DNA from: a virus
Lineage: Duplodnaviria; Heunggongvirae; Uroviricota; Caudoviricetes
DNA: 16,022 nucleotides
Strand: one strand, 5' to 3'
Virus record (IMG/VR): IMGVR_UViG_2526164666_000036
Span: 1 to 16,022 of that record
This document shows positions 3,467 to 15,701 of this stretch, in pieces (the stretch's first letter is position 1; every line of letters begins with the position of its first letter). Below the pieces are notes generated by a model. That model did no database searches. It saw nothing but the letters and a program-made list of their open reading frames with translations, and was not told the origin of the DNA. The position numbers and the translations under genes were made by a program.

Positions 3467-3745
3467 TTACCTCCAGATCCGTTGCTGGAATGTGCGGGAC
3501 GGACGCGGTGGCCGTTCGGAGTAAGGGAGCCTGACGGAGATTATCCAGTGACGGTAGTCGAGGCTAAGGGCTTTTTTAACCTCGCATCCGCGCCTGCGGT
3601 AACACTGAATGAGCCATTCGGCCTGTTCTTCAGTGCATGGGGGATGCTGGTACCAGTCAGATTTGAATGCGTGAAAACACCGTCCGCGCCTGCTGGCAAA
3701 GACGGCAGAATCATCAGAATTGTATAATTTGGTATCGTGCGCCAT
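3467..3745 (-). CDS. Hypothetical Cys/His-rich small protein, 92 aa (position of rem in Qin)
   Basis: First in-frame ATG at 3745 (MAHDTKLY...); the track's TTG start at 3826 lies inside a terminator U-tract. Stop TAA sits inside the SD-start spacer of the DUF968 gene. SD is weak. Confidence 0.45.
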   Translation of the reverse strand: MAHDTKLYNSDDSAVFASRRGRCFHAFKSDWYQHPPCTEEQAEWLIQCYRRRGCEVKKALSLDYRHWIISVRLPYSERPPRPSRTFQQRIWR

Positions 3746-3912: not shown

Positions 3913-4068
3913 TTACTCCTCAGGTTCGTAAGCTGTGAAGACAGCGACCTCCGTCTGGCCGGTTCGGATTCGTACCTCGCAGAGGTCTTTCCTCGTTACC
4001 AGTGCCGTCACTATGACGGTTAAACAGATGACGATCAGGGCGATTAACATCGCCTTTTGCTGCTTCAT
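3913..4068 (-). CDS. hokD: Hok-family type I toxin HokD (RelF), 51 aa
   Basis: Translation MKQQKAMLIALIVICLTVIVTALVTRKDLCEVRIRTGQTEVAVFTAYEPEE matches HokD as I recall it; AGGAG 9 nt upstream of ATG at 4068. The track ORF carries a 19-codon in-frame upstream extension. Confidence 0.9.
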   Translation of the reverse strand: MKQQKAMLIALIVICLTVIVTALVTRKDLCEVRIRTGQTEVAVFTAYEPEE

Positions 4069-4244
4069 AGCCTGCTTCTCCTTGCCTTTCGGCACGTAAG
4101 AGGCTAACCTACATGTGCAAGTCATAGATATGGCCTCAGATTAATGTTAAGCGTCTTGCCGGACGCGTAATGTTAACTGGGGCTTTTCTCTATCTGCCTT
4201 TTGGTGTTCATGCCTGAGACAGATAGCCTCAAGCACCCGCAGCA

Positions 4245-9704: not shown

Positions 9705-10130
9705 TTAGTGCATCACCACAGCATTCCCTGCCGGGCCGCCGCGATTCATCTGGTCATACAAAACAACCGCTGACGCAACAAAATCATCGACATCCTTCAC
9801 CAGCCGATCCCTCCGTTCGACGATCTCACGGTAATATTCAGAACTGTGGCTGCGCATACGGGCCACCAGCAAAGGCGGCATCGCCTTTTCGATCGCCGGT
9901 AACAGAGCCTGCATTTTTTCAACAGCATCAGGGGTGTCTTTCTCTACCCAGCGGAAAATTTTCTGGGTATTGCGAGCCAGGGCTTCCGGATGGCTGTCGT
10001 CATACAGTTCTGGGAACGTCATACCCAACTCAAAATAAGCCTGGGTTATTCCAGCTGCTGGAACTTTTTCGCCATCAGGACGCGCCCAGGCATTCATCGC
10101 CATGCGGATGTGTTCATGCTTGATTTTCAT
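9705..10130 (-). CDS. YdaT-like protein (CII-position regulator), 141 aa
   Basis: Begins MKIKHEHI; AGGAG SD; directly downstream of, and overlapping by 17 nt, the Cro-like gene, as in Rac ydaS-ydaT. Confidence 0.65.
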   Translation of the reverse strand: MKIKHEHIRMAMNAWARPDGEKVPAAGITQAYFELGMTFPELYDDSHPEALARNTQKIFRWVEKDTPDAVEKMQALLPAIEKAMPPLLVARMRSHSSEYYREIVERRDRLVKDVDDFVASAVVLYDQMNRGGPAGNAVVMH

Positions 10131-10395
10131 GAATCAAGCTCCTAGAAAGTGGTTGTGTTAACGTTTTGGTATCTTCCAGCTCGGGCCAAATATTCATCCA
10201 ATCAAAAGGCCTTAGTTGCTGACGTGTAACTTCACCATTACTGGCTCGCTCAATAAGGACACATAACGATGCCCCTAACACTTGACCTTTACTCAATGCC
10301 TTTCTTAGATAACCGATGCTGGTACCACACTCGCATGCAAACATACGCTGTTCATCTGACGAAAGAGAATTGAGAAATATTCTTAATTCTTCCAT
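10114..10395 (-). CDS. Cro-like HTH regulator (YdaS/DicC family), 93 aa
   Basis: HTH-like FACECGTSIGYLRKALS and IERASNGEV...LRP pattern; AAGGAG SD 5 nt upstream of ATG; divergent from the repressor gene. Confidence 0.7.
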   Translation of the reverse strand: MEELRIFLNSLSSDEQRMFACECGTSIGYLRKALSKGQVLGASLCVLIERASNGEVTRQQLRPFDWMNIWPELEDTKTLTQPLSRSLIHENQA

Positions 10396-10495
10396 AGCTA
10401 CTCCTTAGTAAACACAGCAAAGAATACCCACAGGTAAACAAAAGTCAATACCCACAGGTTGTTTACCTTGCGGTAATCGCATCTATTATTTACCT
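10396..10495. promoter_or_regulatory. Divergent immunity promoter/operator region
   Basis: Direct repeats AATACCCACAGGT at 10423-10435 and 10447-10459, plus TTTACCTATGGA at the repressor ATG. Minus strand carries TTGACT-16-TATTCT for the Cro-like gene. On the plus strand TATTAT (10484-10489) sits 6 nt before the repressor ATG with no SD, implying a leaderless mRNA. Confidence 0.55.
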
Positions 10496-10915
10496 ATGGA
10501 CAAATATGAATTTAGACGACAGCAACTCATCAAAATTCGTGATGAGAAATGCGATGGTAAAGCGGTTAACGTGGCCAGAAAGATCGGGCGCGAGCCTTCT
10601 TATGTATCAAGAATGTTGTACCCAGAGGGGAAAAAGGGAAAAAAACGGATCGCTGATGATATGGTGGAGATTATCGAAGAGTCCTTTGGGTTACCCCGGG
10701 GATGGATGGATGGTATCGTTTCATCATCAACGAACACAGCCTCCAGTTATGAAACAAGGGTTCTAACGCCACGACAACGTATTTTTTTAGATCTCTTAGA
10801 CGAACTGCCAGAAAGTGAAGCGGATAAATTATTAAAAACTCTTGAAGAGAAAAAACAGTATTACAATATGATCTACGAAGAAATCCGTAAAAAGAAAGCA
10901 CAAAACGCATCATAG
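10496..10915 (+). CDS. cI-type prophage repressor (DicA/RacR-like), 139 aa
   Basis: Divergent from the Cro-like gene; N-terminal HTH region; C-terminal LPESEADKLLKTLEEKK resembles the DicA C-terminus as I recall it. Confidence 0.75.
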   Translation: MDKYEFRRQQLIKIRDEKCDGKAVNVARKIGREPSYVSRMLYPEGKKGKKRIADDMVEIIEESFGLPRGWMDGIVSSSTNTASSYETRVLTPRQRIFLDLLDELPESEADKLLKTLEEKKQYYNMIYEEIRKKKAQNAS

Positions 10916-10955
10916 CTCACCAAACAACTAGTCACCAGTTAAGACACCGCAAAAA

Positions 10956-10997
10956 TTTACCCATGGGTATTTACTTTTTAAATACCTATGGGTATCC
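10956..10997. promoter_or_regulatory. Two palindromic operator-like sites at the early operon promoter
   Basis: TTTACCCATGGGTATTT (10956-10972, perfect palindrome TACCCATGGGTA) and AATACCTATGGGTATCC (10981-10997), same half-site as the divergent region; overlap candidate -35/-10 hexamers. Confidence 0.5.
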
Positions 10998-11180
10998 TTC
11001 TTTTCATACCAACCCACCCCGCCCCACAGAATGCAGGGCAATACTTCGAGTTACCAGGCAGTGGTCAGGGGTTAAGTAGCCAGCCCGAGGCGTAAGAACA
11101 TGACGGCAGGGTTCAACTTTAATAACTATGCAGCAGGTTTTTGTTCCGCTACCCCGGCGTTAAGGGGAAATGAGGTCAGC

Positions 11181-11333
11181 ATGGATACTATCGATCTTGG
11201 CAACAACGAATCTCTGGTATGTGGCGTGTTTCCCAATCAGGACGGCACGTTTACCGCGATGACGTATACCAGAAGCAAAACGTTTAAAACGGAAGCTGGC
11301 GCGCGTCGCTGGTTAGCAAGAAACTCTGACTGA
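11181..11333 (+). CDS. Small protein YdfA/YdaF-like, 50 aa
   Basis: ATG at 11181 with GAGG 5 nt upstream; MDTIDLGNNESLV... resembles Qin YdfA as I recall it; first gene after the repressor. Confidence 0.55.
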   Translation: MDTIDLGNNESLVCGVFPNQDGTFTAMTYTRSKTFKTEAGARRWLARNSD

Positions 11334-11344
11334 TGAGGTTGACG

Positions 11345-11983
11345 ATGGAATTTAAAGATTTACCTCCTTCAATCCAGGAGATTGCAGCACACACACTTCG
11401 TCATCGTCTGAACGAACTTGAATTGGAATCGGTAACGAAAAAAGACACTGATAATATGGCTCGTAATGTGCGCGATGCGTTTACCGGATTGTATTTCTGT
11501 GCGTCTATAAATAAACACGACTCAGAGAGTGTGGCAAATAAAATTGCAGAAACGACAGCGCAAAACATCAATACGAAACCAACGGAAGAAGAAATTGATC
11601 AGTTTGCTCATGATGCTGGTTTAAAAAACAAGAAAGAAAAATCGCCATATGCGGGGAACATGTTTGTTTATGACAATCTCATCAGAATTCGTGGCGAAAT
11701 TCCGGCGGAATACCTGGCAAGAGTCCATCAGGCATTGCTTAAAAATTTGGAAACAGAATTATTTGATGGCAACACTAACGGTTTCTTCATGGTATCAGGC
11801 CTTGAGAAAGACTGGGATGCAGAAAAACGCTGGAATGTTGCTACATGGTTATTCAGTAACAGAGCCGCTGCACTGGAAGCTTCGGCATGTATTTGCGGCC
11901 TGTTCTTAACAGACCACAAATATAATCTGGATGTGTACAGTTATATTTACGCTGAACACGGTCCACTCTGGATTGACTGGTAA
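11345..11983 (+). CDS. Hypothetical protein of unknown function, 212 aa
   Basis: ATG at 11345 with GAGG 7 nt upstream (alternative ATG at 11333 overlapping the upstream stop); no motif I recognise. Confidence 0.6.
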   Translation: MEFKDLPPSIQEIAAHTLRHRLNELELESVTKKDTDNMARNVRDAFTGLYFCASINKHDSESVANKIAETTAQNINTKPTEEEIDQFAHDAGLKNKKEKSPYAGNMFVYDNLIRIRGEIPAEYLARVHQALLKNLETELFDGNTNGFFMVSGLEKDWDAEKRWNVATWLFSNRAAALEASACICGLFLTDHKYNLDVYSYIYAEHGPLWIDW

Positions 11984-12531
11984 TTATAAGGAAACACCAG
12001 CAGGGCCGCGGCGACCAACAGAACGATTAAAATCAATAATGCCATTATAAAGGACATTATTTAATTTATCGTCGAATGCTGATTCTGTGAGCCTCAACTC
12101 TGAATGAGTTTTTAATAACCCTGATTGCCTGAGTTGATTTACCAGGCATTCAATCTGTTTTTCAATAAGCGGATTTCTTTTTTGTTTGGCATTTTATCCT
12201 CCATTGAGGTTCTGGGTTAAAAATGGAGACCAACACGCTGTCACGTGTGGTCGTGCGCCGGACACGGATAAGAATCCGGTACTGACAGTTTACTGAAAGG
12301 ATATTTCCCTGAAAAGTCAGTGCATAACGCGAAAGCGTACGGCGAAGCTCTTTCCCTTAGAAGGCTTGTCGTTAGATTTCTTCGAACGTGCGCTTCCGGT
12401 TGTGGCACTCCGCGAAATGGCGCGGCGGTAAGTATGGCGGGGTTATTCCTTCCCCAGTTGAGGACACCGGGTTGTCAGGTTGACCATACGCTTAAGTGAC
12501 AACCCCGCTACAACGCCCTCTGTTATCAATA

Positions 12532-12589
12532 TTCTGGTGACATTTGGCGGTATCAGTTTTACTCCGTGACTGCTCTGCCGCCCTTTTTT
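12532..12589 (+). ncRNA. dicF: DicF small regulatory RNA
   Basis: TTCTGGTGACATTTGGCGGTATCAGTTTTACTCCGTGACTGCTCTGCCGCCCTTTTTT matches DicF as I recall it, apart from one or two changes near the 5' end; ends in its own GC-hairpin plus U-tract terminator; lies just upstream of dicB. Confidence 0.85.
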
Positions 12590-12759
12590 AAAAGTGAATT
12601 TTGTGATGCGGTGAATGCGGCTCAGCGCACGCGGAACAGTTAAAACCAAAAACAGTGTTATGGGTGGATTCTCTGTATCCGGCGTTAATTGTTAACTGGT
12701 TAACGTCACCTGGAGGCACCAGGCACCGCATCACAAAATTCATTGTTGAGGACGCGATA

Positions 12760-12948
12760 ATGGAAAAGTTATCATGTAATGCCAGCACGTCTGAACTTCG
12801 TTTCGAAATTGGCGTTATCACTGGAGACAAAACATTTATTGAAGACGCCATTAAGCAGAGAAAACTCGAGCAGGACCTGTTAAATGAAGTATGCATTCCT
12901 TCAATGCTGGCTCGTCTGGACCTGCTGCAAAAAGGATATAAACAATGA
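12760..12948 (+). CDS. dicB: Cell division inhibitor DicB, 62 aa
   Basis: ATG at 12760 with GAGGA upstream; shares FEIGV, EDAI, SMLARL blocks with K-12 DicB; directly downstream of DicF. Confidence 0.8.
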   Translation: MEKLSCNASTSELRFEIGVITGDKTFIEDAIKQRKLEQDLLNEVCIPSMLARLDLLQKGYKQ

Positions 12949-13136
12949 ATACAACATTTGCACTCGTTCTGACAGTTTATCTTGTTTCCGGCGAATCTCT
13001 TGAGCTGGTGACTGGCTTATACGGTTCAATGAAAGAATGCATGGCTGCAGCAGCAGAACAAAAAATTCCCGGTAACTGTTATCCGGTAGATAAAACTACT
13101 CACACTAATAATAACGAAATACCGGCAGGACTTTAA
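12945..13136 (+). CDS. ydfD: YdfD-like small membrane/lysis protein, 63 aa
   Basis: ATG overlaps the dicB stop (ATGA); AAGGA SD; hydrophobic N-terminus TTFALVLTVYLVSG; same position as ydfD in Qin. Confidence 0.65.
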   Translation: MNTTFALVLTVYLVSGESLELVTGLYGSMKECMAAAAEQKIPGNCYPVDKTTHTNNNEIPAGL

Positions 13137-13229
13137 AACAGCACCGTAATTAATATCCGGTTTCATTTTTATATGCCAGCAATGGCAGGGATTTGTTCAC
13201 CCTTAAATCTGTAATGAGGTTAAAACAAA

Positions 13230-15701
13230 ATGAGTAAAGTCTTTATTTGCGCCGCCATTCCGGACGAACAGGCAATAAAAGAAGAGGGCGCAGTTGCTGT
13301 AGCCACTGCCATTGAAGCCGGTGATGAACGCCGCGCCCGTGCCAAATTTACCTGGCAATTCCTGGAGCAATATCCTGCTGCTCAGGACTGCGCTTATAAA
13401 TTTCTTGTCTGCGAAGATAAACCTGGCATGCCCCGCCCTGCTATCGACTCCTGGGATACCGAATATATGCAGGAAAACCGCTGGGATGAGGAATCCGCTT
13501 CCTTTATTCCGGTCGAACCAGAATCCGATCCTATTAACGTCAATTTTGACAAGCTGTCCCTTGAAGTACAGAACGCGGTCCTGGTTAAGTTCGGTACATG
13601 TGAAAACATCACCGTTGATATGGCGATTGACGCGCAGGAATTACTGCAAGAAGACGTGGCTACCTTTGACGGACATATCGTTGAAGCACTGATGAAAACG
13701 CCTGAAATTAACGCTATGTATCCGGAACGCAAACTGTTCGCTATCGGATGGGTTAAACACAAATGTAAGCCGGGTACCAAATGGCCCGAAATTCAGGCTG
13801 AATTACGTAACTGGAAAAAACGGCAGGACGCAGAGCGCAAAGAGACTGGAAAATACACGTCTGTTGTTGATCTTGCCCGCGCCAAAGCCAACCGACAGCA
13901 CACTGAAAACCCAGCAGAAAAAATCCCTCCTGTAACTGCCGCCATTCATCGCGAATACAAGCAGACATGGAAAACCCTGGACAGGGAGCTGGCCTACTAT
14001 CTCTGGCCTGGTGATGCGGATGCCGGAAACATTGACGGCAGCATCCTTCGCTGGGCTAAAAATGAAGTTATCGCCAGAGATCGCGAAGACTGGAAGCGCA
14101 TCTCCGCATCAATGCGCAAACAACCTGATGCGCTTCGCTACAGCCGCCAGACTATTTTTGGCCTTGTCCGTGAACGTCCGATCGACATTCACAAAGACCC
14201 TGTGGCACTGAACAAATACATTACTGAATACCTGACTACAAAGGGCGTGTTTGAAGATGAAGGAAGAAATCAGAGCGCAACTGATACTCTCTCGTCGCCA
14301 GTACCAGAAACTGATGCAGTGGAAACGGCAATTCAGGACAACGAAAAAACCGAATGCAAAGTGGAAGTCGAATCATCTGTAGAGCGTGAGGGGCCGTTCT
14401 ACTTCCTCTTCAGCGACAAGGATGGCGAAAAATACGGTCGTGCAAACAAACTTTCTGGTCTGAATAAGGCGCTGGCTGCAGGGGCTACTGAAATCACGAA
14501 AGAAGAATATTTTGCCCGCAAAAACGGTACATACTCAGGTTCACAACAAAATACTGGTGCATCTGACACGATCGCACAACCGGAGCCGGTAAAAGTTACC
14601 GCTGACGAAGTAAACAAAATTATGCAGGCAGCCAATATCAGCCAGCCTGACGCCGATAAGTTGCTTGCTGTATCACGTGGTGAATTTGTTGCAGGGATTA
14701 GCGACCCGAATGATCCGAAATGGGTGAAGGAGATTGAAACCCGCGATTCAGTGAATCAGAACCAGCAAGAAACGGAACAGAACGACCAGAAAGCGGAACA
14801 AAACAGCCCAAATGCGTTACAAAACGAGCCAGAAACGAAACAATCCGAACCAGTAGTGCAACAGGAACCGGAAAAAGTCTGCACCGCCTGCGGTCAGAGC
14901 GGTGGCGGCAACTGCCCCGATTGTGGCGCTGTCATGGGCAACGCAACATACCAGGAAACATTCGATGAAGAGAATCAGGTTGAAGCTCAGGAGAATGATC
15001 CGGAGGAAATGGAAGGCGCTGAACATCCACACAAGGAGAACACTGGCGGCAATCAGCATCACGCCAGCGATAGTGAAACTGGCGAGGCGGCAGATCCCTT
15101 AATTAAGGTGAATGGTCATCACAATCTCACATCCACCAGCAGAGCGGGGATTCATCTGATGATCGACATTGAAACCATGGGAAAAAATCCCAATGCCGCG
15201 ATTATCTCAATAGGCGCAATATTTTTCGATCCACAAACCGGAGATATGGGACCGGAATTTAGCAAGACCATCGATCTGGATACTGCTGGCGGAGTTATTG
15301 ATCGTGACGTCATTAAATGGTGGCTGAAGCAATCACGTGAAGCGCAGTCTGCCATTCTGACCGATGAAATCCCGTTAGATGATGCACTACTGCAATTGCG
15401 GGAATTTATCGCCGAAAACTCCGGTGAATTTTTTGTTCAGGTCTGGGGAAATGGAGCCAACTTCGACAACGTGATTTTACGCCGTTCATACGAACGGCAG
15501 GGGATCCCCTGCCCCTGGCACTACCACAACGATCGCGATGTACGCACAATCGTTGAGCTAGGGAAAGCCATAGACTTCGATGCCAGAACAGCTATCCCAT
15601 TCGAAGGTGAGCGCCACAATGCACTTGATGACGCCCGTTACCAGGCAAAATACGTTTCAGCTATCTGGCAAAAACTGATCCCGAGTCAGGCTGATTTTTA
15701 A
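13230..15701 (+). CDS. Large prophage protein (YdfE-like N-terminus) with internal zinc ribbon and C-terminal DEDDh (DnaQ-like) 3'-5' exonuclease domain, 823 aa
   Basis: C-terminal motifs MIDIETMG (Exo I), GNGANFDNVIL (Exo II), HNALDDARYQA (Exo III); CTACG...CPDCG ribbon around 14878-14930; Q/E-rich low-complexity linker around 14755-14875. Confidence 0.8.
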   Translation: MSKVFICAAIPDEQAIKEEGAVAVATAIEAGDERRARAKFTWQFLEQYPAAQDCAYKFLVCEDKPGMPRPAIDSWDTEYMQENRWDEESASFIPVEPESDPINVNFDKLSLEVQNAVLVKFGTCENITVDMAIDAQELLQEDVATFDGHIVEALMKTPEINAMYPERKLFAIGWVKHKCKPGTKWPEIQAELRNWKKRQDAERKETGKYTSVVDLARAKANRQHTENPAEKIPPVTAAIHREYKQTWKTLDRELAYYLWPGDADAGNIDGSILRWAKNEVIARDREDWKRISASMRKQPDALRYSRQTIFGLVRERPIDIHKDPVALNKYITEYLTTKGVFEDEGRNQSATDTLSSPVPETDAVETAIQDNEKTECKVEVESSVEREGPFYFLFSDKDGEKYGRANKLSGLNKALAAGATEITKEEYFARKNGTYSGSQQNTGASDTIAQPEPVKVTADEVNKIMQAANISQPDADKLLAVSRGEFVAGISDPNDPKWVKEIETRDSVNQNQQETEQNDQKAEQNSPNALQNEPETKQSEPVVQQEPEKVCTACGQSGGGNCPDCGAVMGNATYQETFDEENQVEAQENDPEEMEGAEHPHKENTGGNQHHASDSETGEAADPLIKVNGHHNLTSTSRAGIHLMIDIETMGKNPNAAIISIGAIFFDPQTGDMGPEFSKTIDLDTAGGVIDRDVIKWWLKQSREAQSAILTDEIPLDDALLQLREFIAENSGEFFVQVWGNGANFDNVILRRSYERQGIPCPWHYHNDRDVRTIVELGKAIDFDARTAIPFEGERHNALDDARYQAKYVSAIWQKLIPSQADF

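Follow-up and report, generated by a model that had tools for sequence, protein, structure and literature searches.

DicF and DicB are inhibitors of cell division, and DicF copies have been linked to the control of virulence in enterohemorrhagic Escherichia coli. Once the repressor that keeps a given DicF/DicB copy off is known, it is clear when that copy can be expressed. Which protein does so in the prophage studied here, and through which DNA sites? The stretch analyzed (16,022 nt; the window) is a Qin-like lambdoid E. coli prophage adjoining rspB/ynfA. A sequence-only reading had proposed that two near-perfect palindromes directly after the repressor gene form a second operator pair, placed on the promoter of the early operon, and that the same repressor controls ydfA-dicF-dicB. 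Following this up by comparison with related loci, we consider it highly likely that the pair is an OL/PL-type second operator region on the early-operon promoter, through which the prophage repressor silences ydfA-dicF-dicB. The arrangement is ordinary for a lambdoid phage, and the immunity type is one for which we found no description. A literature search, with subscription journals outside its scope, returned no published description of the operator or of the repressor family, and searches for phage mEp043, which encodes a related repressor, and for the operator strings returned nothing relevant.

[quoted passage not shown] Leftward from the divergent region lie the genes for a Cro-like YdaS protein, YdaT, an O-like protein, and a DnaC-like protein, with hokD/sok, a DUF968 gene, and the genes for RusA and Q farther left. 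Rightward, the gene for the 139-aa repressor is followed by ydfA, a 212-aa open reading frame (ORF), a reverse-strand ORF, DicF, dicB, and a ydfD-like gene, after which come an exonuclease gene, xis, and int; among these, ydfA, DicF, dicB, the exonuclease gene, xis, and int lie downstream of the operator pair on the same strand (Table 1). The annotation of dicB was taken from RefSeq for a locus (L001) that is identical to the window across 10100 to 11400. In comparison with Qin of K-12, positions 11143 to 11326 (most of ydfA) are 91% identical, and positions 12252 to 13996, which hold dicB, are 85% identical.

Some further features of the window stand apart from the switch itself. An in-frame ATG at 11100 would lengthen YdfA from 50 to 77 aa (11100 to 11333); this long form is annotated in some phage records, where it is wrongly named head-DNA stabilization protein D. 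The reverse-strand ORF (11984 to 12193, 69 aa), which lies inside the presumed ydfA-dicF unit, matches PHROG 4274 (function unknown) and, together with a promoter-like site at 12220 to 12191, would give rise to convergent transcription. Rfam assigns the small RNA STnc100 to 812 to 1000 (134 bits) and the sok antitoxin RNA, beside hokD, to 4063 to 4238 (115 bits), both on the minus strand.

TABLE 1 Coordinates of the switch, with its predicted operators and promoters, and of the genes of the downstream operon in the window
Feature	Positions	Strand	Basis
Cro-like gene (YdaS family, 93 aa), first of the leftward replication operon	10114-10395	-	ORF
PR-like promoter of the Cro-like gene, TTGACT-16-TATTCT	10421-10448	-	Promoter scan, 9/12
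Divergent-region operator A (TACCCACAGGTA), between -35 and -10 of the leftward PR-like promoter	10425-10436	.	Exact motif
Divergent-region operator B (TACCCACAGGTT), just upstream of the PR-like -35	10449-10460	.	One-mismatch motif (ends GGTT)
PRM-like promoter of the repressor, TTTACC-16-TATTAT	10462-10489	+	Promoter scan; predicted start on ATG 10496
Divergent-region operator C (TACCTTGCGGTA), overlaps -35 of the repressor's own promoter	10464-10475	.	Exact motif
Repressor (139 aa): N-terminal helix-turn-helix domain, flexible linker, DicA/PaaR2-like C-terminal helical hairpin	10496-10915	+	ORF, PHROG, homology, AF2
Second-region operator 1 (TACCCATGGGTA), abuts the upstream side of -35	10958-10969	.	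Exact motif; conserved first member of the pair
Predicted RNA hairpin of both operators (16-bp stem, 5-nt loop), then TCCTTCTTTT	10958-11004	+	Terminator scan
-35 hexamer TTTACT of the early-operon promoter	10970-10975	+	Conserved position in 24 related loci
Second-region operator 2 (TACCTATGGGTA), over spacer and first two -10 bases	10983-10994	.	Exact motif; conserved second member of the pair
-10 hexamer TATCCT, begins on TA of site 2	10993-10998	+	TAnnnT in 24/24 related loci
Predicted transcription start (CA)	11005-11006	+	Coincides with mosaic boundary
Untranslated leader of the early operon, 5' part C-rich and G-poor	11006-11180	+	Common to phages of other immunity types
ydfA	11181-11333	+	Pfam DUF1391, E = 9e-30
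DicF small RNA	12532-12583	+	Rfam RF00039, 77 bits (gathering score 48)
dicB, cell-division inhibitor	12760-12948	+	RefSeq annotation of L001 and translation

The palindromes had been described as sharing the half-site of the divergent region and as lying 25 bp apart directly after the repressor gene, and both points hold. The 12 bp of TACCCATGGGTA are perfectly palindromic, and in TACCTATGGGTA a single central pair is mismatched; center to center, the two sites are 25 bp apart, and the first starts 42 nt past the repressor stop codon. The motif TACCNNNNGGTA occurs exactly four times in the 16,022 bp (at 10425, 10464, 10958, and 10983), against a mean of 0.06 in shuffled sequence, and none of 200 shuffles reached four. 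With the site at 10449, which has one mismatch, this makes five sites, grouped within 570 bp about the repressor gene; all have the core TACC-N4-GGTA, which is common to both regions. A fourth divergent-region candidate over the repressor ATG (10491 to 10502, TACCTATGGACA) has two mismatches and is missing from related loci; we treated it as a chance match.

To see how these sites are maintained, we compared the window with 30 loci (176 kb) that encode the same DNA-binding domain: 24 genome loci, the phages mEp043 and CharmingMan, and 4 relatives with the short form of the repressor. The genome loci derive from Yersinia, Klebsiella, Edwardsiella, Pantoea, Brenneria, Atlantibacter, Aeromonas, Arsenophonus, Ferrovum, and a Hydrogenophilaceae genome, and the loci span Enterobacterales, Aeromonas, and Betaproteobacteria. 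They contain 105 exact sites, versus 2.5 in shuffles, and a pair of sites 24 to 26 bp apart is found in 27 of the 30 loci versus none in shuffles. In the divergent region, the sites lie at about -72, -47, and -32 from the repressor ATG. The equivalent of site A is present in nearly all related loci at -71 to -75 (mostly -72/-73), and that of site C is conserved at -32/-33. Site B, whose center is only 15 bp from that of the next site, is missing in 12 of the 30 loci; wherever it was detected (18 of the 30 loci and the window, at -47/-48), it reads GGTT instead of GGTA.

The downstream pair has one internal structure throughout. In the related loci it lies 43 to 1943 bp past the repressor stop codon, the distance being set by intervening genes, and consists of only two sites, not three, in the window and the related loci. 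The common layout is an A-rich stretch, site 1, a -35 element, site 2, and a -10 element that starts on the TA of site 2. After site 1, the -35 consensus is TTGAC (T23 T20 G16 A20 C14 of 24 loci), and the last -10 base, four bases after the TA of site 2, is T in all 24. The eight half-site positions are essentially invariant among the related loci and the central 4 bp are variable, a pattern that would be expected of a protein-binding site and not of simple sequence inheritance.

A scan of IMG/VR returned only near-identical copies, which were used for polymorphism alone. Among 79 near-identical E. coli copies, most polymorphisms in both downstream sites fall in the central 4 bp. Half-site changes were also seen: nine of the 79 copies (IMG/VR L029-L108) have A in place of G at 10472, in site C, and one has G in place of A at 10994, which also removes the A at -10 position 2. 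Copies with half-site changes may be decaying switches.

The pair had further been placed on candidate promoter hexamers. These are TTTACT and TATCCT, separated by a spacer of 17 nt; they match the consensus at 8 of 12 positions, below the scanner threshold of 9/12, and so went unlisted in a scan of 10300 to 11400 that did list both divergent-region promoters. The promoter call at the pair therefore rests on conservation, since the position and key bases of the hexamers are retained in the related loci. The PR-like promoter of the Cro-like gene has the same layout as 10958 to 10998, namely, operator, -35, operator, -10: its bottom strand reads AACCTGTGGGTA-TTGACT-TTTGTT-TACCTGTGGGTA-TTCT, and the downstream pair reads TACCCATGGGTA-TTTACT-TTTTAAA-TACCTATGGGTA-TCCT. 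At the PRM-like promoter, the -10 element stops 6 nt ahead of the repressor ATG and there is no Shine-Dalgarno sequence, suggesting that the repressor mRNA is probably leaderless, like those of lambda cI and paaR2; the latter was found to be leaderless by 5' RACE in the same kind of locus (PMC8630535). The same leaderless-type layout is present in mEp043 and CharmingMan.

The predicted start of the early-operon transcript coincides with a mosaic boundary, which is seen in an alignment of four loci (L109, L110, L111, and L112, the last being a Salmonella relative). Megablast matches from phages of other immunity types begin at window positions 11002 to 11007. From ~11005 on, phages 689R5, 666R9, and Evi have the leader CATACCAACCCACCCCGCCCCACAGAA in common with the window; upstream of it, each carries a -35/-10 of its own together with a repeated motif like that of its divergent region. 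In the Salmonella relative, with a repressor that is 85% identical, this leader follows the same TACC-N4-GGTA pair as in the window. Qin of K-12 has in common with the window only the last ~38 nt of the leader (from 11143) and ydfA, and its DicA-type operators lie around TTGACC-17-TAATCT and match its own divergent region. This boundary at ~11005 indicates that the operator pair belongs to the immunity module and that the shared module starts at the predicted transcription start. In phage Evi, the primers published for PL933P delimit 118 bp whose end lies two bases inside the shared leader; this slot corresponds to window positions ~10890 to 11007.

The leader is C-rich and G-poor at its start, with 17 C and 6 G in the 40 nt from 11006 to 11045. 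Folding of the 180-nt leader is no more stable than that of shuffled sequences (z = +1.27), and Rfam at its gathering threshold gave no match in it. The unstructured leader start (11006 to 11045), kept across several immunity types, is a candidate Rho-utilization site or other conserved leader signal.

The slot itself has been studied in two relatives. In K-12, operators resembling those of lambda PR/PL have been described in the dicA-dicC and dicA-dicBp intergenic regions, and deletion of dicA raises dicBp activity 22-fold (PMC10448788). In CP-933P, the PL933P fragment is an active promoter that is repressed ~100-fold by PaaR2 and by YdaS (PMC8630535). The proposal that the repressor controls the ydfA-dicF-dicB operon is thus supported by analogy, as the same slot holds a repressor-controlled promoter in both, and by comparison, as the motif travels with the DNA-binding domain in 30 loci; both lines would imply binding and repression in the window.

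The protein that would bind these sites is itself a mosaic. A Pfam search of the repressor gave no match, including none to HTH_3, and its match in PHROG is to 5736, "transcriptional regulator." Its N-terminal ~75 to 100 residues (53 to 73% of the protein) are 63 to 82% identical to the N termini of LexA/S24-type CI repressors of 221 to 242 aa, and its N-terminal domain is 65% identical to that of mEp043 cI. The C-terminal domain of these longer relatives matches the lambda CI C-terminal domain (E = 5e-24); in a PDB sequence search with them, only this S24 part was matched. The sequence PSYVSRML, near-invariant among the relatives, is the putative recognition helix. In the AF2 model of the repressor (pLDDT of 85.8), helices 23 to 30 and 34 to 40 form the helix-turn-helix, with PSYVSRML in the second, and a disordered linker then leads to a C-terminal helical hairpin. 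Residues 89 to 134 (46 residues) are 33% identical to the DicA C terminus, the only part that aligns with DicA, and the hairpin resembles by eye the C terminus of PaaR2. The nearest Foldseek matches, with weak E values, are the antirepressor-controlled Rep of Salmonella phage SPC32H and XRE-type helix-turn-helix proteins.

The S24 self-cleavage domain, present in the 221- to 242-aa relatives, is absent from the 139-aa repressor, which ends in the helical hairpin. Thus, among phages, one DNA-binding domain without a Pfam family is joined to two alternative C-terminal domains, a self-cleaving one of the S24/lambda-CI type (221 to 242 aa) or a short helical hairpin of the DicA/PaaR2 type (135 to 140 aa). 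With such a domain swap, operator specificity would stay and the mode of induction would change. As this DNA-binding domain and these operators recur with S24-type repressors, mEp043 cI among them, the repressor of this cryptic prophage, itself non-cleavable, might give cross-immunity against phages with SOS-inducible repressors of that type, e.g., mEp043. The ORF at 3470 to 3745 (minus strand), which we examined as a candidate homologue of the Qin antirepressor Rem because its position is equivalent to that of rem in K-12, shows no similarity to Rem.

Putting these observations together, we propose that dimers of the 139-aa repressor would recognize TACC-N4-GGTA via the N-terminal helix-turn-helix domain. 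One dimer would sit at 10958 to 10969, directly against the -35 TTTACT, and a second, 25 bp away at 10983 to 10994, would cover the spacer and the start of the -10 TATCCT. Both would exclude RNA polymerase, with cooperativity probably provided by the C-terminal helical domain, so that, as long as the repressor is present, no transcript of ydfA, DicF, and dicB would start at about 11005/11006. In this scheme, the binding, the cooperativity, the start site, and a transcript extending as far as dicF and dicB are inferred. As to the last, transcripts from the early promoter would reach dicF and dicB, about 1.5 kb downstream, given the homology to K-12 and the lack of a predicted terminator in between (a scan of the plus strand from 11000 to 13170 found no terminator-like site); continuity of the operon past the reverse-strand ORF between ydfA and dicF is assumed from K-12. 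The mechanism is textbook lambdoid, and the result fills in the map without a change of concept. What the comparison yields is an operator consensus, TACC-N4-GGTA, a map of the promoters throughout the switch, and a clear example of domain swapping.

Among the alternatives, the one that survives best concerns the RNA made from the pair. The two palindromes can fold into a hairpin (RNAfold, -22.2 kcal/mol; z = -6.2) with 5 GC pairs in its 16-bp stem, followed by a T-run interrupted by C, and the pair might mainly, or also, serve as the intrinsic terminator of the presumably leaderless repressor transcript, blocking read-through into the toxic dicF-dicB operon. We regard this as possible but doubtful. 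The terminator scan does list 10958 to 10994 plus TCCTTCTTTT, and no other terminator-like site was found on the plus strand from the repressor stop codon to 13170. In mEp043 and 689R5, a separate GC-rich terminator precedes the pair; in the window there are only 42 nt at this place and no such terminator. Of 27 loci, only the window has a hairpin with a short loop (5 nt), and with 7 T in 10 nt the tail after it ranks among the most T-rich. However, two similar palindromes must pair anyway: hairpins of -7 to -24 kcal/mol are predicted in all 27 loci, also where the pair sits 1 to 2 kb from the repressor gene. The stem is AT-rich and the T-run broken, and in the Salmonella relative, the closest diverged locus with the same gene order, the predicted fold has a 10-nt loop and no T-run follows (1 T in 10). 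Conservation of the short loop and T-run is likewise lacking in the other loci.

A sole role as a terminator can explain neither invariant half-sites with a free center nor a conserved -35 and -10, and on these grounds the terminator-only reading is rejected. Tentatively, then, the same 47-nt stretch could have two jobs, acting as DNA as operator pair and promoter, and as RNA as the only terminator before the dicF-dicB operon, although we would not bet on it. If true, one set of palindromes would protect the operon against transcription from its own promoter as well as against read-through. As a speculation, the C-rich, G-poor, and unstructured leader start would suit Rho-dependent termination as an alternative limit on read-through.

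A second alternative exchanges the protein: the Cro-like YdaS, and not the 139-aa repressor, would bind the sites, and the operon would be turned down in lytic development instead of being silenced in the lysogen. The Cro-like protein scores 25.8 bits against Pfam YdaS, under the cutoff of 30, but it matches PHROG 35 ("transcriptional repressor") and is labeled a YdaS family helix-turn-helix protein in RefSeq. Its homologues adjoin the repressor in all the loci compared, with 45 to 74% identity, and the motif covaries with it as tightly as with the repressor, suggesting that YdaS probably binds the sites too; on sequence alone, either protein could be the one that binds. To our knowledge, though, the repressor and the Cro-type protein use the same operators in every characterized lambdoid switch. 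An unrepressed dicF-dicB would poison the lysogen, yet the module is intact in 822 of the 5426 E. coli genomes. While YdaS represses PL933P in CP-933P, so does PaaR2, about 100-fold (PMC8630535), and DicA represses dicBp in K-12 (PMC10448788). We therefore find it very unlikely that YdaS acts in place of the repressor.

Also very improbable is that the pair holds no promoter and that the operon is read only by read-through from the repressor promoter, with bound repressor acting as a roadblock. The hexamers are indeed weak (8/12) and unlisted by the scanner, and no separate terminator follows the repressor gene. Against this, in 24 loci the -35 and -10 keep a constant position with respect to the sites, and the last T of the -10 is invariant; this layout is kept even where a strong terminator precedes the pair; the homology with phages of other immunity types begins at the predicted start; and in Qin and CP-933P the corresponding fragments have promoter activity. 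The read-through-only reading is accordingly rejected. Finally, that the palindromes are chance matches or a functionless relic duplication, for which nothing but the weak promoter score speaks, is contradicted by the comparative data (0 of 200 shuffles reached four exact sites, and pairs occur in 27 of 30 related loci versus none in shuffles) and has practically no probability left.

With the pair thus read as a second operator region on the early-operon promoter, how does it compare with known systems? As in lambda OL/PL, it lies beyond the repressor gene and is transcribed in the repressor's direction; its sites repeat those between the CI-type and Cro-type genes, overlap the -35/-10 of an early-left promoter (a predicted one in the window), and are spaced like neighboring lambda sites, 24 to 25 bp apart. 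The repressor message is leaderless in lambda and predicted to be so in the window. Unlike lambda, which has three sites, the window has two, a difference of detail and not of kind. The window core is of 12 bp, TACC-N4-GGTA; the repressor lacks the S24 self-cleavage domain; the operators are only about 0.5 kb from the divergent region; and the next gene is not N, the operon instead comprising ydfA, DicF, and dicB.

DicA/dicBp of K-12 Qin (PMC10448788) is closer in setting. Both prophages occupy the chromosomal site next to rspB and share the downstream operon blocks ydfA (91%) and dicF-dicB-ydfD (85%); in both, operator, -35, operator, and -10 follow directly after the repressor gene, and the repressor C-terminal domains are homologous (33% identity). 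In contrast, the DNA-binding domains are unrelated, as are the operators, those of K-12 being of the TGTTAG...CTAA type. The Cro-like gene of the window is YdaS-type, not DicC; its leader is about 100 nt longer; and ydfB and ydfC are replaced by the 212-aa ORF and the reverse-strand ORF.

CP-933P and phage Evi (PMC8630535) have in common with the window a short repressor, probably leaderless in the window, with a DicA-like C-terminal domain, as well as Cro and CII analogues of the YdaS and YdaT types, respectively, and in Evi, PL933P lies directly upstream of the same conserved leader. Their operators are of the GTTTAGT type and their DNA-binding domain is another one; in CP-933P, paaA2-parE2 stands between the repressor gene and PL.

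The operators themselves have their counterpart in mEp043 and CharmingMan. The DNA-binding domain of cI is the same (65% identity for mEp043), three TACC-N4-GGTA sites precede the repressor gene, and a pair 25 to 26 bp apart lies on PL, in mEp043 an annotated putative PL ahead of gene N. The mEp043 repressor, however, has 228 aa with an S24 peptidase domain and is presumably SOS inducible, a separate terminator stands ahead of the pair, and the downstream operon starts with N. Judged by its sequence, the module of the window would work like DicA/dicBp yet belongs to another immunity type than DicA and PaaR2.
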